Part shown: positions 2,380-27,201 of the stretch, piece after piece
Layout of the letters: each line of letters opens with the position of its first letter
How positions within the stretch are numbered: position 1 is the stretch's first letter
Source: a virus
UHGV virus genome: UHGV-0038079
DNA length: 27,742 nucleotides
Reading direction: 5' to 3' (one strand)
Translations under genes and position numbers: made by a program
The notes under the pieces: model-generated
The model's input: the letters and a program-made list of their open reading frames with translations, nothing else
The model's database searches: none
Told to the model about the DNA's origin: nothing

Positions 2380-2732
2380 TACGCCTCCGATGTAACAGTC
2401 GTTATTCCATAGAGAGTGTCGATTTCAGCGGAAAACATGACACGTCGGGTCGTTGTATCCACCGTCGTATTGAAAGAGAGGATTGATTTAACGCCCCGCG
2501 TTTCGAGGATGCGCTTACGGATCGCCAAGTTGTAGGTTTCCGGCTTCTGCTTACCGAGTACGGACTGGATCCACGGAGTCCCCTCAGTGGTGTCGAGAAA
2601 CCATTGCCCATACCACAATTCGAATCGCGTTTTTACCGCCTGCGCCACGGCCTCCGGTGAGTTAATCAGCCAGGTGTCATCACCGCTGCCAAAAGTGTAA
2701 TCGCCATCGGCGTCTTCACGTCTGTATCGCAT
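2379..2732 (-). CDS. Small baseplate protein (gpW / Mu gp46-like position), 117 aa
   Basis: ORF track; start overlaps the stop of the spike gene; conserved position. Confidence 0.45.
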   Translation of the reverse strand: MRYRREDADGDYTFGSGDDTWLINSPEAVAQAVKTRFELWYGQWFLDTTEGTPWIQSVLGKQKPETYNLAIRKRILETRGVKSILSFNTTVDTTTRRVMFSAEIDTLYGITTVTSEA

Positions 2733-3484
2733 CAGTTTACTCCGTCGGTATTGCTTCCACCGCGCTGAACACCACCATGAGTGTGCGTATCATCGATTGG
2801 CTTGCCGTTAGCCTTAACGCTCCCCAAGAACTCAACAGCACCAGTGATTTTTGAAGCCACACCAGAAACAACAGACCCCACCATGCCCCCCATCCAGGTT
2901 AACAGGCCATGAATGGTTACTTTCTCAGAAAAATCAGCCAGAGGGGCAACCACATCAAGACCACCCGGAGCGACAATTTTAATTTTCCTGGTATCAGGAT
3001 TAAGCTCAAAATAGGTGCTGCCGTCGTCACTACGCAACTGTGTGGCACTGGTATTAATACCGCTAATCTTCCTCGCCTGCGACTGGGGACCGGCAATACA
3101 AAACGCATCCGATAAATCATGCATTCTGTCATCGACCGGCTCCTGTATCCCACCGCTCTGCCACCAGAAATCAATACAACGATCGGCAAAAACGACAAGA
3201 CACTCATCCCCGGCTTTAACCGGAAAAGTCAACGTACAGCCTCCGCCGCGCGGGAATACCACTGGTACATCCACCAGCAGGGGTAATGTCGTCGACTGGT
3301 TGATTCCATTTGAGTCCGGCTCATAGCCTTTAATCGCAGGTTGAACAACCACTGTTACCGCGTCCGGATCAAATGACTGGACGATGCCGGGCATAGAAAC
3401 ACGCAGCGCCGACATGACAGAGCCAGCAAGTCTTACATCGGCCTGTTCTTTGTTACCAAGTTGAGCGCTTAAAGAAACTGGCAT
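2732..3484 (-). CDS. Baseplate central spike protein (P2 gpV / Mu gp45-like), 250 aa
   Basis: C-terminus KANGKPIDDTHTHGG resembles the gpV C-terminal tip and contains an HxH motif; RBS GGAGA upstream of ATG 3484. Confidence 0.6.
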   Translation of the reverse strand: MPVSLSAQLGNKEQADVRLAGSVMSALRVSMPGIVQSFDPDAVTVVVQPAIKGYEPDSNGINQSTTLPLLVDVPVVFPRGGGCTLTFPVKAGDECLVVFADRCIDFWWQSGGIQEPVDDRMHDLSDAFCIAGPQSQARKISGINTSATQLRSDDGSTYFELNPDTRKIKIVAPGGLDVVAPLADFSEKVTIHGLLTWMGGMVGSVVSGVASKITGAVEFLGSVKANGKPIDDTHTHGGVQRGGSNTDGVN

Positions 3485-3501
3485 TCATATGTCTCCAGAA
3501 A

Positions 3502-3527
3502 GTAAAAAACCCAACCGAAGCTGGGTT
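3502..3527 (-). terminator. Intrinsic terminator downstream of ant
   Basis: Minus-strand AACCCAGC-TTCG-GTTGGGTT stem (8 bp with one G-U, UUCG tetraloop) followed by TTTTTT. Confidence 0.55.
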
Positions 3528-3544
3528 GTCGCGTTGGTTATCTG

Positions 3545-4459
3545 TCAGTAGTTATGTACTGAAGGAGGTAATTCTTTATTCTTAAGTCTCATCCATGCGG
3601 AAAGATTCGTTGGTCCGTCTGGCTCATTGATATCAACATCTCGTGTGTGATTGATTAAAACGTCTCTCGCCATTCCGATAACATACGAGAATTCATGACC
3701 GTAGTCGTAGCATCTGCCGGAATAGTTCGATTGAATTTGTTTTAATGCCGGATACAGTTCGCGGAATAATGCCTGTGAGCGGTTGGCATAATCCCATAAC
3801 CATACAAGGCTGTTTGCTTCTTTTGCAGAAAACTCGTTTACTTTCTTCTCTTGTTTGCCAATGAACTCACCTTCAAGTGGAACTCGAGCTGCAAGTGACA
3901 GTGCTTCTGTAAACTGCTCCTCACTGATTTCTTTGTACGAACAGCCAAAATGAGATTTCAGTGACGACCACATGGTGATCATCGCCTTCGCCTGTTTTTC
4001 TTTTGGCAGAGACTGACCGCGACTCATGACGAGTTGTTTAATAGCTTCCTGCTGTTCAGTGGTGATTTTACCAGGCAACGCCTTTTTAGCTTTCGGTGTA
4101 TTTCCGTAAGACCCCGTTTTACGAATGGATGGCAAAACTTCAGCTGTTACCCATTTGCGGAATTTGTGCGGGACTGAACCTTTATTGACGGCATCACGGC
4201 AGCGCAGAACCAATGTATACATACCTGATTCGCTCACAATGCTTAAATTCTGCTCACCACCAAGGGTGTAACTTAAAGTTACTCCCTTCTCATCGTCATC
4301 AAGTGCAGTAAGCGCCTTGCGTGAGTTAGTCAGGGCTAAAGCATCACAAACATCTTTTGCTACAAACCACGGCTCGCCGCACTTGTTGATGACGCGGATT
4401 TCACTGTCGCCGAATTTGAAGATGGTGAAATCGTTTTGTGCCTTTGCTATACTTTTCAT
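3545..4459 (-). CDS. ant: Antirepressor Ant (P22 immI Ant-like), 304 aa
   Basis: Antirepressor-like N-terminal domain ([33 protein letters not shown]); lies directly downstream of an Arc-like gene, as in P22 immI. Confidence 0.75.
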
Positions 4460-4532
4460 GTCAATATTTCCCGATCAGATTTGTTGATGTAGAAGCCTCG
4501 CCAGTTCCCGCTGTCGGGGCTTCGTTATTTTT
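4460..4532 (+). ncRNA. Predicted sar-like antisense RNA covering the ant start region and arc-ant spacer
   Basis: Plus-strand extended -10 TGcTATACT (4445..4453) just inside the ant 5' end; plus-strand hairpin GAAGCC...GGCTTC (4493..4523) followed by GTTATTTTT; same topology as P22 sar. Confidence 0.4.
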
Positions 4533-4692
4533 AGAGAGCATTCCGCATTTTCTCCCGGTACTTCAACCACCAAGCTAATCCTTGAACCAACACTGAGTTT
4601 TCTGACATTCCCTCTTCCTCTGCAATGCGCTTAACTTCTTCCTTAAAGCGGTACGGGTAGCGAAGAGTTGTCTTTACTTCATTCTTTTCCAT
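4531..4692 (-). CDS. arc: Arc-like ribbon-helix-helix repressor, 53 aa (below the ORF-track size cutoff)
   Basis: Hand translation MEKNEVKTTLRYPYRFKEEVKRIAEEEGMSENSVLVQGLAWWLKYREKMRNAL; same length and RHH pattern as P22 Arc (LRWPREV...ENGRSVNSEIYQRV). Confidence 0.7.
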   Translation of the reverse strand: MEKNEVKTTLRYPYRFKEEVKRIAEEEGMSENSVLVQGLAWWLKYREKMRNAL

Positions 4693-4799
4693 GCTGTCTC
4701 CTTATTTCACAATGAAGGCAAATTGCCTTTAGAGTCAATTTACCATGATTGCACATGAAGTCAAGTTGCCTCTACAATGATTTTTATTTGAGGTGAGTT
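4693..4799. promoter_or_regulatory. Divergent promoter/operator region (Pant-like leftward, Pmnt-like rightward)
   Basis: Plus-strand -35 TTGCAC (4749..4754), 18-bp spacer, -10 TACAAT (4773..4778), SD GAGGTGAG before mnt ATG 4800; minus-strand -35 TTGACT; perfect 15-bp palindrome AAGGCAAATTGCCTT at 4715..4729. Confidence 0.5.
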
Positions 4800-5123
4800 A
4801 TGTCAGAAAAATTTCCCAGCCAAATGCAAGACAAGTTCACCGTGAGGTTTCCTGACGGATTGCGCGATGCTATAGCTGAACGAGCTAAACGTAATGGCAG
4901 ATCAATGAACTCAGAGATTGTGCAGATACTGGAAGATGCCTTGAATGCAGAAAATACTCTTGGGGAAATAGCAGATAAAATTAACAGCGTCTCGGTTCCG
5001 CTAAATGTTGATGCGCTAGTTCAACTTCAAGCCCAGGTTATCGCCATGCAAAAAGAAATACAGGAAAAGTTCAGAGAGCAGAACGAAAAGTTGAGAGAAC
5101 TGCTAAACAAAAAACCCACCTGA
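4800..5123 (+). CDS. mnt: Mnt-like ribbon-helix-helix repressor, 107 aa
   Basis: N-terminus FTVRFPDGLRDAIAERAKRNGRSMNSEIVQILEDAL matches the Arc/Mnt fold motif (P22 Mnt ...ANGRSMNSELLQIVQDAL); divergent from arc. Confidence 0.75.
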   Translation: MSEKFPSQMQDKFTVRFPDGLRDAIAERAKRNGRSMNSEIVQILEDALNAENTLGEIADKINSVSVPLNVDALVQLQAQVIAMQKEIQEKFREQNEKLRELLNKKPT

Positions 5124-5132
5124 CGGTGGGTT
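5104..5132 (-). terminator. Intrinsic terminator downstream of the secreted-protein gene (overlaps the mnt stop codon)
   Basis: Minus-strand AACCCACC-GTCA-GGTGGGTT hairpin followed by TTTTTTGTTT. Confidence 0.5.
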
Positions 5133-5147
5133 ACGGAGAGGGCAAGA

Positions 5148-5483
5148 TCATTTAACCTTTCGGCAATCGTACGTCCAAAATTCCCGAGGCTCGTCCATAT
5201 TTTTGCGGATAACTTCAACGTTGAGGATCGCTTTTTTGTTTCGTTTGATGTAGTCCATACCTAACCAACGTCCAGTATTAGGATCAGGTAACATCCATTG
5301 CATCATGACGTTATCGAAATCGTCTTTTTGTTTCAAAAAGGTCATTTTTTGTGTTTCTGGCTTTTGACCATTGATGTGCATGAGGCCATCATTACCAGCA
5401 TCAAAGCGGAATGGTCCGCACTGCGTTGCCGCCGAAACGGTTAACGGCAGGGCCAAGAATAAACAAAAAAATACTTTTTTCAC
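5148..5483 (-). CDS. Small secreted protein of unknown function, 111 aa (GTG start)
   Basis: N-terminal signal peptide MKKVFFCLFLALPLTVSA-ATQ; SD GGAG 9 nt upstream of GTG; start overlaps the stop of the upstream baseplate gene; own terminator. Confidence 0.6.
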   Translation of the reverse strand: MKKVFFCLFLALPLTVSAATQCGPFRFDAGNDGLMHINGQKPETQKMTFLKQKDDFDNVMMQWMLPDPNTGRWLGMDYIKRNKKAILNVEVIRKNMDEPREFWTYDCRKVK

Positions 5484-6514
5484 TCTACATCTCCGACTTT
5501 GTCCAAAGTGCCTTTTGCCAATAGTTCTTTGCCACCTTTAGCCAGGCAAAGCAGGTCCATATACCACGCCTGCCCTCGGGTGTCGCCAGTATAATCAATG
5601 CTGCCCACAATGTAATCACCGTCAGTACTAATACTGGCAGGCTGTGACATGCCTGGCAGACCGTTAACGTAGAGATTACCGTCGCTTTCAGACTCATCCA
5701 GTCGTGCTGGCGATTTCGCTACCTGGTCATTACTCAAAGAGGCACGGTATACAGATGCCTGATCCAGACGAATAAGCCCACCGAGCTTAATATTTGGATT
5801 AATCAGACATCTGACATTTACGCCAGCTCCCATCGTCTGCTGTGGCATACCGATAAGCCCGGTGTTAGCATTCAACACCGTAGCAACACCAATATATTTA
5901 TCTTCAGGAACAATATTTACCAGATTATTTTCATACCACCAGTTAGCCTTACACTGCCCTGCGATATGATTCATCAACCTTGATGTGTTTTGATAAACAA
6001 CGCGCCCCCGGGGAAATACCGTTTCAGGCATGTCAGGAACTGCGCCGGATTCGATGCCATATGGTTCGAATGATTTCATACCCAGACTGAAAAGATCTCT
6101 GTACTTCCAGCCAGCTGCCACTGTGGTTTTCACACTTGCGTTCAGGTGGCCTTCCCAGCTGTCAATACACTGCAACATGATCCAACTGTCTGTGGCATTA
6201 TCTTTACCAGTGACAGTAAAACGGATATCTCCATTGAATATCATGCCAACGTTTTCATCAGGATAATTACCTGCTACATCCGGTTGCCCCTTGTATCCGG
6301 CAATAACCTGTATACGCGAAAACTCCTTCTGCATAATCCGGTTCTGAGTGGTAGGAGACAGGTTATAAACCTTAAAATTTCCAACGAATCCATTAAATAT
6401 GGTCGCAGGCATTTTCTGAATATTGAAAGTGACTTTAAGCTCAGAAATTTTTATCCCGTCGCCCTTATCATCAACAAGCAATAATTCAAAGTGACGCATC
6501 CAGTTTTTCGACAT
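5480..6514 (-). CDS. Baseplate hub-like tail protein, 344 aa
   Basis: ORF track; position between tape-measure-proximal genes and the spike; assignment by synteny only. Confidence 0.45.
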   Translation of the reverse strand: MSKNWMRHFELLLVDDKGDGIKISELKVTFNIQKMPATIFNGFVGNFKVYNLSPTTQNRIMQKEFSRIQVIAGYKGQPDVAGNYPDENVGMIFNGDIRFTVTGKDNATDSWIMLQCIDSWEGHLNASVKTTVAAGWKYRDLFSLGMKSFEPYGIESGAVPDMPETVFPRGRVVYQNTSRLMNHIAGQCKANWWYENNLVNIVPEDKYIGVATVLNANTGLIGMPQQTMGAGVNVRCLINPNIKLGGLIRLDQASVYRASLSNDQVAKSPARLDESESDGNLYVNGLPGMSQPASISTDGDYIVGSIDYTGDTRGQAWYMDLLCLAKGGKELLAKGTLDKVGDVE

Positions 6515-15278: not shown

Positions 15279-16499
15279 TTACCCTTTACGGTTTGCCCAG
15301 AATTCAGCGTTTTGTTTGTTCAGGGAAGCGATACTGGTCATGCCCATGTTTGGGCGCTGTGCATCGCCGGTGGTGGCGCGGGTGTTTCGCCCTTTGGCAA
15401 TCTCAGACACGGCATTAAACGCCATGTCGACCGATTGTTTCGGCAATTTGCGGATATCCGCATCACCGACTATCTGGCGAACCAGCGTTTTATCTGCGGA
15501 AGCCAGAACCTCGCGTTTGAACGCGGTCGGTTTCATCTTACGGCTCAGATCGATACCCGGAACGATAACTTCGGCACGCCAGGCTGAGTCACCAGTAATC
15601 GTGGTTTCCTCTTCATCGTCCTCGCCGTCACCGGTCGGATTATCGTCAGGCTTATTGTCGTTATCGCCCGTCGCATTTCCTTCCAGCTTAGCCAGCAGGG
15701 CTTTCAGTAATGTTTTGAGGTCATCATCACTGTCGCCGGTTGGACCTCCACCCATCTCTGGTGCTTTGTCCGGTAGTGGTTGCTGCGGGGACAGGTTGAT
15801 GTTGAGATTAACGCCCTGCGGCAAATCCCCCTCATCTCCTGTAACCGATGCGGGAGCCGACTCCACCAGTTCGTTCATGGTGTCGGCATCTCCTGTCTTG
15901 ATGGCTGCACGCATGCGGTTCCACCAGTTTTTCTTTTGATTTGCCATTGTGTCTCTGTCTCCAATTGCACAACGATTTCCGGCTCTGCCTTTGGGGACAA
16001 GAGCCACATGGTTTCCGGTAATATCGACCTGCTCGGCTTTACCTGGCTCGGCCTGCTCGTACTCCGCGTCATAGCCGCACGACACTTCACGCAGGCCATC
16101 TTCGATAAGCTGAATGGCGTTTTCGTCTTTGACGATAAGGTCAGCCAGCATCAAATCAGACTGCTCACCCGTCCCGCGCCGGACATTCTGGAGGTGCCCG
16201 ACAGCAAGCTCTTTCCAGTTCTCGGGATTTACCAGCCGCACATTCCCGTTTTCATCTTCAGGATGCAGGATCGTGATGCTCATCCCTTCGAATGAGGCGA
16301 GCGTGGCCGGATGGAATACCTGCTCAGGAGAACGCGTTACGACTATCTCACCGAGCTTGTCGGGTTTGAGGTTTGGCAGATCGGCAGAGCCGTAGAGCTG
16401 CTTACCCGTTCGACCTATCGGCACGTCTTTGCACAGCAGCGAGCCGTCAGCCAGCTGATAGCGGGTTTCCCCCAGCCTGGTATTGAAAAAATATTTCAT
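15279..16499 (-). CDS. Scaffold / prohead protease-like protein, 406 aa
   Basis: Acidic low-complexity C-terminal half (DSDDDLK, GDGEDDEEE) typical of scaffolds; position after the head-morphogenesis gene. Confidence 0.55.
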   Translation of the reverse strand: MKYFFNTRLGETRYQLADGSLLCKDVPIGRTGKQLYGSADLPNLKPDKLGEIVVTRSPEQVFHPATLASFEGMSITILHPEDENGNVRLVNPENWKELAVGHLQNVRRGTGEQSDLMLADLIVKDENAIQLIEDGLREVSCGYDAEYEQAEPGKAEQVDITGNHVALVPKGRAGNRCAIGDRDTMANQKKNWWNRMRAAIKTGDADTMNELVESAPASVTGDEGDLPQGVNLNINLSPQQPLPDKAPEMGGGPTGDSDDDLKTLLKALLAKLEGNATGDNDNKPDDNPTGDGEDDEEETTITGDSAWRAEVIVPGIDLSRKMKPTAFKREVLASADKTLVRQIVGDADIRKLPKQSVDMAFNAVSEIAKGRNTRATTGDAQRPNMGMTSIASLNKQNAEFWANRKG

Positions 16500-23419: not shown

Positions 23420-23449
23420 ATTATGGCTAAATGGATAATTGCATGTCAA
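23420..23449 (-). promoter_or_regulatory. PR'-like late promoter (presumed Q target)
   Basis: Minus-strand perfect -35 TTGACA (plus 23444..23449, inside the last Q codons), 18-bp spacer, -10 CATAAT (plus 23420..23425). Confidence 0.5.
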
Positions 23450-23945
23450 GGCTTTTAACAGCAACATGCTTAACTTTCTCAACACGTTTACGCATTTTGA
23501 AAGCATTTTGCATTGGCTGGTACAAAACAAATAACGACGCTTTCAGGATGTCGTCAATTTCGTTTCTACAGGTTGCCAGTGAAGGTTTTCTCCATCCCTC
23601 GCCACCACGTCCACACATCTTGCGTGGCTTTGCAGTCGCGTGATAGTAGGATGCAATTGCTCGCTTAGATGAACCATGAGCGTAGTAGCTGAGGAGGATG
23701 CCAAAGGCTTTCTTGTCAATGTACATGACGGAATCGACGACCTGAGAAATCAACATTCCATCATCATCATTACACATTGGCCTTGTCATAACTCTTCCCG
23801 GCTCTACGCTCTCCATGAACTTCGCTATTACGCTGCTCATGCGCTTTTCCAGACGACCTGAATAAACCCATGCGCCCCACAGTTCAAGCCAGCCATTCAG
23901 CCACTCGTGCTGCTCTTTGGTGAGGTTTAGTTCTCTTATGCTCAT
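23427..23945 (-). CDS. Q: Late-gene antiterminator Q (phage 21/82-type family), 172 aa
   Basis: Position between ninH and the late promoter/lysis genes; motif WGAW...RPMCNDDDGMLI...LSYY as recalled for non-lambda Q families. Confidence 0.7.
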   Translation of the reverse strand: MSIRELNLTKEQHEWLNGWLELWGAWVYSGRLEKRMSSVIAKFMESVEPGRVMTRPMCNDDDGMLISQVVDSVMYIDKKAFGILLSYYAHGSSKRAIASYYHATAKPRKMCGRGGEGWRKPSLATCRNEIDDILKASLFVLYQPMQNAFKMRKRVEKVKHVAVKSLDMQLSI

Positions 23946-24489: not shown

Positions 24490-24776
24490 GACTTAATCTT
24501 CCCCTCCTTCAGCAGTATCGCCTGCGTCCTGATTACGCCTTCGAGGTGGTAAAGTCTGGCGTCTTTGTTGTCGAGATTATGGGTGCGTCGGTCGATTTCA
24601 TCGTGGCAGTCACTACAAGCCCATGCGCCGATCAGGTCGTCAGGTTTCATTCCCGTTCCGCAAATTCCAGCCATCCGGTAATGTGCCAGAACTGTAGTTT
24701 CAGGATTACCATTGCATACGCCGTAAATACGTACCTGGCATTCTCTGCCGCGTGCTTCTTTGCGTAGGTTAGCCAT
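24486..24776 (-). CDS. YbcO-like putative nuclease (DUF1364), 96 aa
   Basis: MANLRKEARGRECQVRIYGVCNGNPETTVLAHYR...CSDCHDEIDRRTH closely resembles DLP12 YbcO as recalled. Confidence 0.75.
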   Translation of the reverse strand: MANLRKEARGRECQVRIYGVCNGNPETTVLAHYRMAGICGTGMKPDDLIGAWACSDCHDEIDRRTHNLDNKDARLYHLEGVIRTQAILLKEGKIKS

Positions 24777-25498
24777 TAAGCAGCCTCCCCGGTTACTTTC
24801 AGCATCCCGTTATCGAGCAGCTTTCTGGTCAGCCACTGTTGACCACGCCCGGTGATTTTTGTGGTGAACGATATCTGTATTCCGTGATTTGTGTTGACCG
24901 CTGTTTCTTTCACTGTGAAATAGCCGCGATCCATATATTCCTGCATTGGCACATTGCGCCGGGAACCTGAAGCAATTAGGATTTTGTGATCGCGCATCCA
25001 CGCAAACAGCTTGTTCGGACCAATACCGACAACCTTTGCAAAGTTTCCAATCAAAATTCCGCTGGCCTCGCCAACGCGATCGGCAAACTCAACTTTAGGT
25101 GCGGCAATTGCGAGCTGGTTTTCCAGTTGCATTTTCTGCTCAGCAAGATCAGCAGCAAGGCGCAACGCTTCCGGTAGCGTTTTGGGGATATTAACCGCAG
25201 CTTCTTCAAGCTCTCGCCAGCGGTCAACAAGGCGAGCGGTGAACTCTGGCGACAACTGAGCGACAACGACAATACTGTCTCGCTTACCTTGTTCGCCCTC
25301 GAAGACGTAATGCTCGTACTGAACATTGAACCCTAAGTTATTGATTCTTTCGGAAACCTCAATTTGAGGAAGCCGGATAACACCATTTTTAGCCAGCGTT
25401 TCGATGGTACGTTTCACATTGTCATGACGCTTACCCACCAACTCAGCGATTTCAATGCTTGTCATTTTGATGGCATTGCCATTTATTAACTCATTCAT
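24776..25498 (-). CDS. Antirepressor-like regulatory protein (Rha N-terminal domain + KilA-C/ANT C-terminal domain), 240 aa
   Basis: N-terminal SIEIAELVGKRHDNVKRTIETL (Rha-like), C-terminal ...GNFAKVVGIGPNKLFAWMRDHKIL (KilAC-like). Confidence 0.7.
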   Translation of the reverse strand: MNELINGNAIKMTSIEIAELVGKRHDNVKRTIETLAKNGVIRLPQIEVSERINNLGFNVQYEHYVFEGEQGKRDSIVVVAQLSPEFTARLVDRWRELEEAAVNIPKTLPEALRLAADLAEQKMQLENQLAIAAPKVEFADRVGEASGILIGNFAKVVGIGPNKLFAWMRDHKILIASGSRRNVPMQEYMDRGYFTVKETAVNTNHGIQISFTTKITGRGQQWLTRKLLDNGMLKVTGEAA

Positions 25499-26067: not shown

Positions 26068-26240
26068 TTCCTCGCACGATGTCTTAGCCACCGGATATCC
26101 CACAGGTGAGCCGTGTAGTTGAAGGTTTTTACGTCAGATTCTTTTGGGATTGGCTTGCGTTTATTTCTGGAGCGCTTCGTTGGAAGGTATTTGCAGTTTT
26201 CGCAGATGATGTCGGTGATACTTCGTCGCTGTCGTCTCAT
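26064..26240 (-). CDS. ninE: NinE-like protein, 58 aa
   Basis: [47 protein letters not shown] matches lambda NinE as recalled; ATG overlaps the dam stop (ATGA). Confidence 0.75.
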
Positions 26241-26764
26241 GCTGCCCTCCTGACGCCCTGCCCGATCGCCATCAATGCCGCTTTGGATACGGTAGTAAAC
26301 ATCCGTCGAGGACTGATGAACGGTCGCCAAATCAGCAGCATGGAACCTTTGCTGTTTCCCTTCTTCTCCAGCCCTGTCGATGGTTCGATAAAATTAATCC
26401 GTCCATCAGTGATGATGCGAACTTCGTCAACACTCTCCAGAGCCTTGCTGAACCATCCGACAGACATATCCTCTGGCACAAGCATCACTACCGTCTGTCG
26501 CTGTTGCATGCACTGCTCAGCGGCTTTTTCCACCCACGGCCTGATATTGCTGTACGGTGGGTTATTCCAGATTGCACCGTGGCTTATCCACTCAGAATTT
26601 AGCGCGTCGTCAGCCTCAGTTAGCCAGTGAGCGCACAGAGCATTTTTGTCGCTCGCTGCCGAATCCAGCCAGAATCCAAACTCAATATCCAGTGCATCAA
26701 AAAGCCAAAGCGGCGTTTGCCAGCAGTCCTTGTCGTGTGCTGGCGTATTTGATTTGATAGTCAT
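26237..26764 (-). CDS. Phage-type DNA N6-adenine methyltransferase (orphan Dam family), about 175 aa
   Basis: [16 protein letters not shown]-terminus and NPPY catalytic motif (IWNNPPYSN); ATG 26764 overlaps the ninB stop. Confidence 0.8.
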
Positions 26765-27201
26765 GCAGCCCGATCTCCCCATCGCGCTTTCCATTCGAGA
26801 GCCAGTCGCGCTTCGTCTGACCACTTAACGCCACGCTCTGTACCGAATGCCTGTATAAGCTCTAATAGCTCCGCAAATTCGCTTACACGCATCCTGCTGG
26901 TTGACTGGCCTATTACCACAAAGCCATTCCCGGCAAGGTTAGGAACAACGTCCTGCTGCTTTAATGCTGCGGTAAACACACACTTCCAGCTTTCTGCATC
27001 CAGCCAGCGCCCATGCCATTCAACCTGACGAGAGACGTCACCAAGGCAAGCCCAAAGCTTTCGATTCTGGTCTAAGCTGCGGTTGCGTTCCTGAATGGTT
27101 ACTACGATTGGTTTGGTTGGGTCTGGAAGAATTTGCTGTACCGCGTGAATAGCGTTTTGCTGATGTGCTGGAGATCGAATTTCAAAGGTTAGTTTTTTCA
27201 T
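26761..27201 (-). CDS. ninB: NinB recombination protein, 146 aa
   Basis: MKKLTFEIRSPAHQQNAIHAVQQILPDPTKPIVVTIQERNRSLDQNRKLWACLGDV... essentially the lambda NinB sequence as recalled; start set at MKKLTF (27201). Confidence 0.9.
   Translation of the reverse strand: MKKLTFEIRSPAHQQNAIHAVQQILPDPTKPIVVTIQERNRSLDQNRKLWACLGDVSRQVEWHGRWLDAESWKCVFTAALKQQDVVPNLAGNGFVVIGQSTSRMRVSEFAELLELIQAFGTERGVKWSDEARLALEWKARWGDRAA

Follow-up and report, generated by a model that had tools for sequence, protein, structure and literature searches.

A probable P22 immI-type immunity module as exchangeable cargo between the baseplate hub and central spike genes of a contractile-tail lambdoid prophage

The virus genome UHGV-0038079, a stretch of 27,742 nucleotides (nt) that we call the window and to which all coordinates refer, represents the late half of a lambdoid prophage, which reads along the minus strand in the order nin region (with Dam, RusA and a Rha/KilAC antirepressor-like gene), Q, holin, lysozyme, Rz, terminase, head genes and contractile tail. 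Inside the tail cluster, in the slot between the genes for the baseplate hub and the central spike, lies a compact cassette made up of three open reading frames (ORFs) related to mnt, arc and ant of the immI region of phage P22, a divergent control region, a sar-type antisense RNA and a terminator at either end (Table 1). The three ORFs had already been claimed by the first-pass annotation of this DNA and are present in the ORF list where it had placed them, all of them full length and with good ribosome-binding sites; the sar-type RNA is an element that it had missed.

Table 1. Position of the immI-type module, its parts and its neighbours within the window (aa, amino acids)
Feature	Position	Strand	Description
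immI-type module	3503..5132	mnt +, arc/ant -, sar +	Homology to P22 immI
Exit terminator	3527..3508	-	AACCCAGCTTCGGTTGGGTT then TTTTTAC; downstream module boundary, follows ant
ant	3545..4459	-	304-aa putative antirepressor with Bro-N N-terminal and P22_AR_C C-terminal domain
Psar-like promoter	4425..4453	+	GTGAAA, 17 nt, TG-TATACT (extended -10); within the first ant codons
sar-type antisense RNA	4461..4527	+	Two hairpins, the second a terminator, then TTATTTTT
arc-like	4531..4692	-	53-aa ribbon-helix-helix protein; first gene of the predicted Pant transcript
Divergent control region	4693..4799		Promoter scan, repeats, direct reading
Operator-like site S3	4715..4729		Perfect 7-1-7 palindrome AAGGCAA-T-TTGCCTT, at about +1
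Operator-like site S2	4734..4744		Covers the Pant -10
Operator-like site S1	4760..4770		Covers the Pant -35
Pant-like promoter	-35 4764..4759, -10 4742..4737	-	TTGACT, 16-nt spacer, TAAATT; promoter scan
Candidate Pmnt promoters (two)	4706..4735 and 4750..4778	+	Promoter scan
mnt-like	4800..5123	+	107-aa predicted ribbon-helix-helix repressor, long helical C-terminal tail
Entry terminator	5132..5113	-	Late strand: AACCCACCGTCAGGTGGGTT then TTTTTGTTT; upstream module boundary
Central spike gene	2732..3484	-	Pfam PF18352 6e-44; GpV Apex motif
111-aa signal-peptide ORF	5148..5483	-	Flank, outside the cassette; ORF list and sequence
Baseplate hub gene	5480..6514	-	PHROG 196 'baseplate hub' 2.3e-79; Pfam E217_GP41 1.4e-07
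Q-type late antiterminator gene	23427..23945	-	Pfam Phage_antitermQ 1.1e-25
Second antirepressor-like gene	24776..25498	-	Pfam Rha and KilAC 'ANT' domain; nin region, just upstream of Q
Dam methylase gene	26237..26824		nin region

The suggested homology of the three proteins to Ant, Arc and Mnt was borne out by Pfam, PHROG, BLASTP against the P22 proteins and matches in the PDB. Ant matches Pfam Bro-N (5.8e-20) and P22_AR_C (3.8e-29) as well as PHROG 245 'anti-repressor Ant' (1.1e-110), and it shares 62% identity with P22 Ant across the 190 aa of residues 115-304. The Mnt-like protein carries a Pfam Arc domain (1.5e-18), is 51% identical to P22 Mnt over 37 aa (E 1e-11) and finds 1mnt (2.7e-6) and AmrZ (3e-9) in the PDB. 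The Arc-like protein, with exactly the length of P22 Arc, falls into PHROG 582 'Arc-like repressor' (3.8e-10), shares 41% identity with P22 Arc over the 29 aa of the ribbon-helix-helix core (BLASTP, E 8e-6) and matches Arc variants in the PDB at E 0.002-0.1. NCBIfam held no useful model for Ant, for the Arc-like protein or for the 111-aa protein encoded next to the hub gene. The arc-like ORF lies 71 nt upstream of ant on the same strand and diverges from the mnt-like gene across a 107-nt spacer. The topology proposed earlier, with mnt and arc divergent and ant downstream, is upheld in full, as mnt-like gene, divergent control region, arc-like gene, sar, ant and ant terminator follow one another in the order and orientation of the annotated P22 immI region.

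The N-terminal half of Ant showed no similarity to the N-terminal part of P22 Ant in a pairwise comparison, being a Bro-N domain instead, and the name 'Ant' in the databases is based on homology only. Both points would suit a different reading, in which this Bro-N/P22AR_C protein is not an antirepressor but a toxic DNA-binding regulator or a host- or defence-directed factor, held for that reason under the control of two repressors and an antisense RNA. We consider this quite improbable. The last 110 residues are roughly 90% identical to P22 Ant, in true immI regions of P22-like phages the same Ant type is found beside Arc and Mnt proteins 98% identical to those of P22, and Ant found no match to any PADLOC defence model.

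The complement of the sar-type RNA covers the spacer between arc and ant together with the ribosome-binding site of ant. Its sequence in the window matches the Rfam model RF00262 over the full length of the model (28.5 bits, E 0.009) and folds at -24.9 kcal/mol (z -4.76), and the region is kept in all 82 cassettes that we collected (26 of them distinct), whose consensus fold contains the two expected hairpins with 22 pairs, two of which display compensatory changes. The -10 block of the Psar-like promoter, TGCTATACT, recurs unchanged in the annotated Psar region of P22 and is invariant in 26 of the 26 distinct cassettes; together with the ant start codon and the terminator stem it aligns with annotated P22 Psar and sar. 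Homology identifies both the RNA and its promoter in this way, and the regulatory action of the RNA would be that of its P22 counterpart. A hit of Rfam ctRNA_pGA1 at 4451..4537, which describes the same hairpin at a lower score (23.2 bits, E 0.18), was dismissed.

Three operator-like sites in the control region between the divergent genes are related to one another and fit the pattern GG(C/T)AA-N-TTG(A/C)C; the third (S3) lies where Omnt is found in P22, a short way downstream of the Pant -10. Sister cassettes possess a different intergenic region with a site triplet of their own, consisting of GGCATATTGC twice and GGCATAATGCC once, and their Mnt alleles are identical to that of the window from about residue 17 onwards, so that only the N-terminal arm and beta-strand vary (KFTVRF in the window, KFVVRF in locus L015, KFNLRF in locus L001; segments compared: window 4524..4829, L001 3608..3904, L015 5663..5770). 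The Arc proteins of the window and L015 are identical but for one residue. Across alleles the operator-like sites co-vary with the arm and beta-strand of an otherwise identical Mnt, which makes it most likely that S1 to S3 are, as predicted from the sequence, Mnt operators. Knight and Sauer reportedly found in 1989 that the DNA specificity of Arc and Mnt is set by N-terminal residues, and reading the sites as Mnt operators fits this rule. We propose the Mnt-like protein as the maintenance repressor of Pant.

Both ends of the cassette are formed by hairpins with the properties of intrinsic terminators (entry, -14.0 kcal/mol, z -4.05; exit, -11.3 kcal/mol, z -2.31). Their T-runs lie on the minus strand, which is the sense of the tail operon, and the right-hand hairpin is consequently antisense to mnt, overlapping its last codons and stop. 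On the plus strand this entry hairpin is followed only by TTACGG and offers no proper T-run, which makes it a poor terminator for mnt. The bracketing terminators of the first-pass annotation do exist in the sense that both hairpins are terminator-like, but they do not bracket the transcripts of the cassette itself symmetrically. The exit terminator corresponds by homology to the one annotated for ant in P22: P22 homology across 3504..3877 extends to P22 position 16034, within that annotated terminator at 16012..16035. In BLASTN comparisons with the cassettes of other phages, homology ends at 3503-3505 and at 5130-5132 in four genomic contexts, and the sequence outside the boundary hairpins is context-specific, from which we conclude that the mobile unit extends from terminator to terminator, 3503..5132. 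Further mosaic joints were detected by BLASTN inside the module near 3877, 4118, 4523-4543 and 4830. Judging from the sequence, the segment from 4523-4543 to 4830, which comprises arc, the operators and the mnt N-terminus, probably sets immunity specificity. A mosaic segment of its own is formed by the middle of ant (3878..4117, codons ~115-194): on either side of it many cassettes show 92-98% nucleotide identity to the window, but the match does not continue across.

What occupies the slot in other prophages decides whether the cassette belongs to the tail operon. Among Escherichia coli complete genomes, relatives with flanks 96-98% identical to those of the window carry other cargo in this place, most commonly DUF4282, otherwise Phd/Doc, a TPR gene with a hypothetical gene, two hypothetical genes or an insertion sequence, besides immI, and conserved flank sequence resumes at ~5143, at the stop codon of the 111-aa ORF. 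As the same slot holds other genes in relatives, the cassette is cargo that can be exchanged rather than an ancestral part of the tail DNA, which is the outcome of the alignment with related prophages proposed in the first-pass annotation. Its claim of an insertion between hub and spike is supported; on the other hand, the 111-aa gene separates the hub gene from the cassette, and hub directly adjoining spike was found in none of the relatives inspected. As in a moron, the cassette is replaced in relatives that retain the same flanking genes, and, judging from sequence prediction and from homology to annotated P22 elements, it has promoter sites of its own (Pant, Pmnt and the Psar-like site) and a terminator at each end. 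Taking these lines of evidence together, we consider it highly probable that an intact secondary immunity module of the P22 immI type occupies window 3503..5132, and that the contractile-tail lambdoid prophage carries it in its hub-to-spike slot as a piece of exchangeable cargo.

The adjective intact deserves comment, since only about five E. coli complete genomes among the matches listed hold the immI cassette in this slot, and HK620 and Scho1 contain ant morons in a degraded state (PMC2629481), as might be expected if the cassette were an inert, decaying passenger acquired by recombination with an Stx (Shiga toxin) or P22-like phage. We give such a passenger hardly any credence: besides the full-length ORFs and their ribosome-binding sites, the sar promoter, the hairpins and both terminators are intact, and loci of the same arrangement in IMG/VR encode proteins that are 97-100% identical.

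Searching IMG/VR with Ant yielded 80 loci, in every one of which the module is located inside a late or tail cluster whose flanking late genes are on the ant strand. Four unrelated tail clusters are represented, namely the 16-to-9 interval of P22-like podoviruses (53 loci), the L-to-K interval of lambda-like tails (17 loci), the interval from an SLT-domain tape-measure-like gene to a Dit-like gene in another myovirus type (7 loci) and the hub-to-spike slot described here (3 loci). The cassette DNA is 89-97% identical to the immI modules of lambda-like Stx phages, of the second myovirus type and of P22-like phages. We tentatively suggest, as a possibility that still falls short of being probable, that immI is a mobile, terminator-bounded unit that has settled in at least four non-homologous tail clusters, always late-sense, and whose specificity is re-assorted through arc, the operators and the first ~15 mnt codons. 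Phage 2851 (L005, NC_049943.1), one of the L-to-K carriers, is of additional interest for its annotation: mnt is unannotated in its RefSeq record, where locus 5343..5643 matches window 4830..5130 at 93.7%, and the Ant and Arc coding sequences are drawn overlapping.

The uniform orientation also invites the view that the selected feature is a transcriptional one, and that terminators, convergent mnt and sar transcription and bound operators throttle late transcription towards the spike, wedge and fibre genes and so determine their dosage, with Ant being secondary. Each slot variant ends with a hairpin and T-run of its own just before the spike ribosome-binding site, which in the window begins 9 nt past the T-run of the exit terminator; the module is late-sense in 80 of 80 loci; and for P22 an influence of the ant moron on read-through into the tailspike gene has been proposed (PMC2629481). 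However, throttling would need just one terminator, and it leaves unexplained why three intact ORFs and sar are kept at 89-100% identity across backbones, for which reasons we judge this view improbable. A promoter scan found no promoter-like site between ant and the spike gene.

Starting from the homologies, the boundaries, the orientation and the presence of Q, all of which can be read at the locus itself, we propose a working of the immI-type module in which every binding and regulatory step is modelled on P22. In a lysogen, the Mnt-like protein, made from its own promoter, would sit on the sites over the -35, the -10 and the start of Pant, and arc and ant would be silent. Upon infection or induction, Pant would fire and yield Arc and Ant, of which Ant would bind and inactivate repressors of the C2/CI type, either the prophage's own or those of co-resident lambdoid prophages, and Arc would then switch Pant off. 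Convergent transcription from Psar would supply the 67-nt antisense RNA, which may pair with the ant ribosome-binding site and prevent translation of Ant from late read-through transcripts. In the prophage state, the two terminators would shield the module from flanking transcription and end Pant transcripts before the spike gene; during lytic growth, RNA polymerase modified by Q, upstream of the holin, lysozyme, Rz and terminase genes on the same strand, would plausibly pass through both terminators and allow expression of the spike, wedge and fibre genes. A near relative encodes a LexA-family CI together with Cro, CII, N and int, and with this CI a plausible target of Ant exists.

Whether Ant would act mainly on its own prophage is a separate matter. 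P22 Ant inactivates not only C2 but also the repressors of L, lambda and 21, and is dispensable for P22's own induction (PMC3121763); moreover, the Ant allele of the window occurs at 75-99% identity on four unrelated phage backbones that must have different primary repressors, and the window already contains the second antirepressor-like gene. Ant might thus act mainly in trans, on the repressors of other lambdoid prophages or superinfecting phages, as a device for cross-talk or for overcoming immunity and not for self-regulation. We regard this as somewhat unlikely, yet as the most serious of the alternatives. In P22, deletion of immI reduces the frequency of lysogeny of the phage itself (PMC11016777), and action in trans is compatible with the working proposed above and does not exclude it.

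The resemblance to P22 reaches beyond gene order and orientation to the direction of the late operon, the homologous ant terminator, the hairpins and -10 element of sar, the length of Arc and the palindromic site in the Omnt position, and here too the downstream late genes would depend on a Q/gp23-type antiterminator. According to the annotated P22 genome, gene 16 and the tailspike gene 9 flank immI within the late operon; this is a fast-changing slot that Villafane et al. (2008) named 'ant moron' (PMC2629481) and that late transcription must cross to reach gene 9 (PMC2629481). The first-pass annotation had stressed a self-contained regulatory island inside a late structural operon, and this is supported but not surprising, as P22 immI itself lies inside a late operon. 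Unlike P22, the present phage has a contractile-tail backbone with the module in the hub-to-spike slot, its Mnt-like protein measures 107 aa as opposed to 83 aa, and orf59a and sieA are absent.

In the same manner, the slot of the window resembles the ant moron of P22 in being a fast-changing place that directly precedes a distal tail gene within a morphogenetic operon, and in its filling, as the slot in P22-like phages often but not always contains immI and the E. coli relatives follow the same pattern. It differs in that the ant moron has been described only for genes 16-9 of P22-like podoviruses, whereas the present slot belongs to a myovirus baseplate cluster, and in its alternative cargo (DUF4282, Phd/Doc and the TPR pair). 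A literature search for the 'ant moron' outside P22-like phages returned only the original paper. With the cassettes of the Stx phages 2851, YYZ-2008 and 1717, located between L and K, the window shares about 93% nucleotide identity in the C-terminal part of ant and the body of mnt, the same two boundary terminators and the same direction inside a tail operon, although those cassettes reside in a siphovirus tail context, and phage 2851 has a different arc/operator/mnt N-terminal allele with no nucleotide match over window 4094..4829.

Like GfoA/GftA of the Gifsy phages, FsoA of Fels-1 and Tum of 186 (PMC3121763), the module would control lysogeny through inactivation of the primary repressor. 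In contrast to these LexA-controlled antirepressors, no LexA box occurs in or near the cassette, the proteins are unrelated, and control would lie with ribbon-helix-helix repressors and an antisense RNA. LexA control was considered and rejected: a search for CTGT-N8-ACAG with at most one mismatch gave 11 matches in the window (8.5 expected), none of them in 3500..5140.

Several points weigh against the assignment to immI or against the function derived from it. First, two of the matches remain under the thresholds of their models, with the sar sequence at 28.5 bits against an Rfam gathering score of 43 and the Arc-like protein at 19.2 bits, marginally under the gathering score of 20.4 for Pfam Arc. 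Second, no distinct Arc operator could be assigned by sequence in the control region, where the three sites are alike (GGCA-N3-TGNC type), whereas Oarc and Omnt of P22 are distinct. Third, the T-run of the hairpin at the end of mnt is late-sense and hence on the wrong strand to terminate mnt, in contrast to the annotated mnt terminator of P22, whose T-run is in the mnt sense. Fourth, the N-terminal domain of Ant differs from that of P22 Ant, which bears on its target range, the primary repressor gene of the prophage is located outside the window, and even for P22 the natural role of Ant is not fully understood (PMC3121763). A low G+C content, as a further sign of insertion, was also considered and set aside: the cassette is at 0.41-0.46 and the DNA to its left at ~0.50, but the hub gene likewise has ~0.45, and base composition is therefore not diagnostic.

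The surroundings of the cassette present features of their own. The 111-aa ORF between hub gene and entry terminator has a GTG start that overlaps the hub stop codon (GTGA) and a signal peptide, MKKVFFCLFLALPLTVSA/AT; its product belongs to PHROG 3443 (function unknown, 7.4e-48), is named STY1065/STY2022 family phage-derived protein in RefSeq and was without match in PADLOC. The ORF is kept next to the hub gene in most relatives, including those with other cargo, and the protein may be a moron directed to the periplasm or else an accessory component of the tail. In locus L011, small secreted ORFs unrelated to it stand in its place; for this reason L011, which looked short enough to represent an empty slot, was discarded as such. 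More generally, the slot (3485..5147 and its equivalents in L002, L003, L004, L009, L010 and L011) is hypervariable in E. coli prophages. The idea that it is a defence island was also dropped, as PADLOC and Pfam searches of the TPR pair, two hypothetical pairs, DUF4282 and a 113-aa protein revealed no known system; Phd/Doc is the exception among the cargo, and its Doc toxin gives only weak matches to candidate (PDC) PADLOC models. In about 300 of the 351 E. coli genomes retrieved with the flank query, J, W and spike are 95-98% identical up to window position ~3287 and diverge thereafter, which indicates a recombination joint inside the spike gene, whose first ~66 codons move together with the hub module upstream of it. 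Furthermore, with Ant and the Rha/KilAC protein, two unrelated putative antirepressors are present in one prophage.

The cassette is a known device on a new backbone, its location within a structural operon is the norm for an immI module, and it leaves the current understanding of how immI works unchanged. What is gained lies partly in annotation, as it becomes possible to assign the sar RNA, the mnt gene overlooked in phage 2851 and the two boundary terminators, and partly in the natural Mnt alleles, which provide a ready series for the study of DNA specificity in ribbon-helix-helix proteins. Beyond this, the findings extend the idea of the ant moron from P22-like podoviruses to lambda-like siphoviruses and two types of myovirus, and they suggest that a portable unit spreads antirepressor cross-talk among E. 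coli prophages, Stx phages included. If the hairpins proved to be recombination joints and the late-sense placement to be selected, perhaps because it allows sar to time the control of Ant or sets the dose of distal tail genes, a general rule would emerge for the entry of regulatory morons into structural operons.

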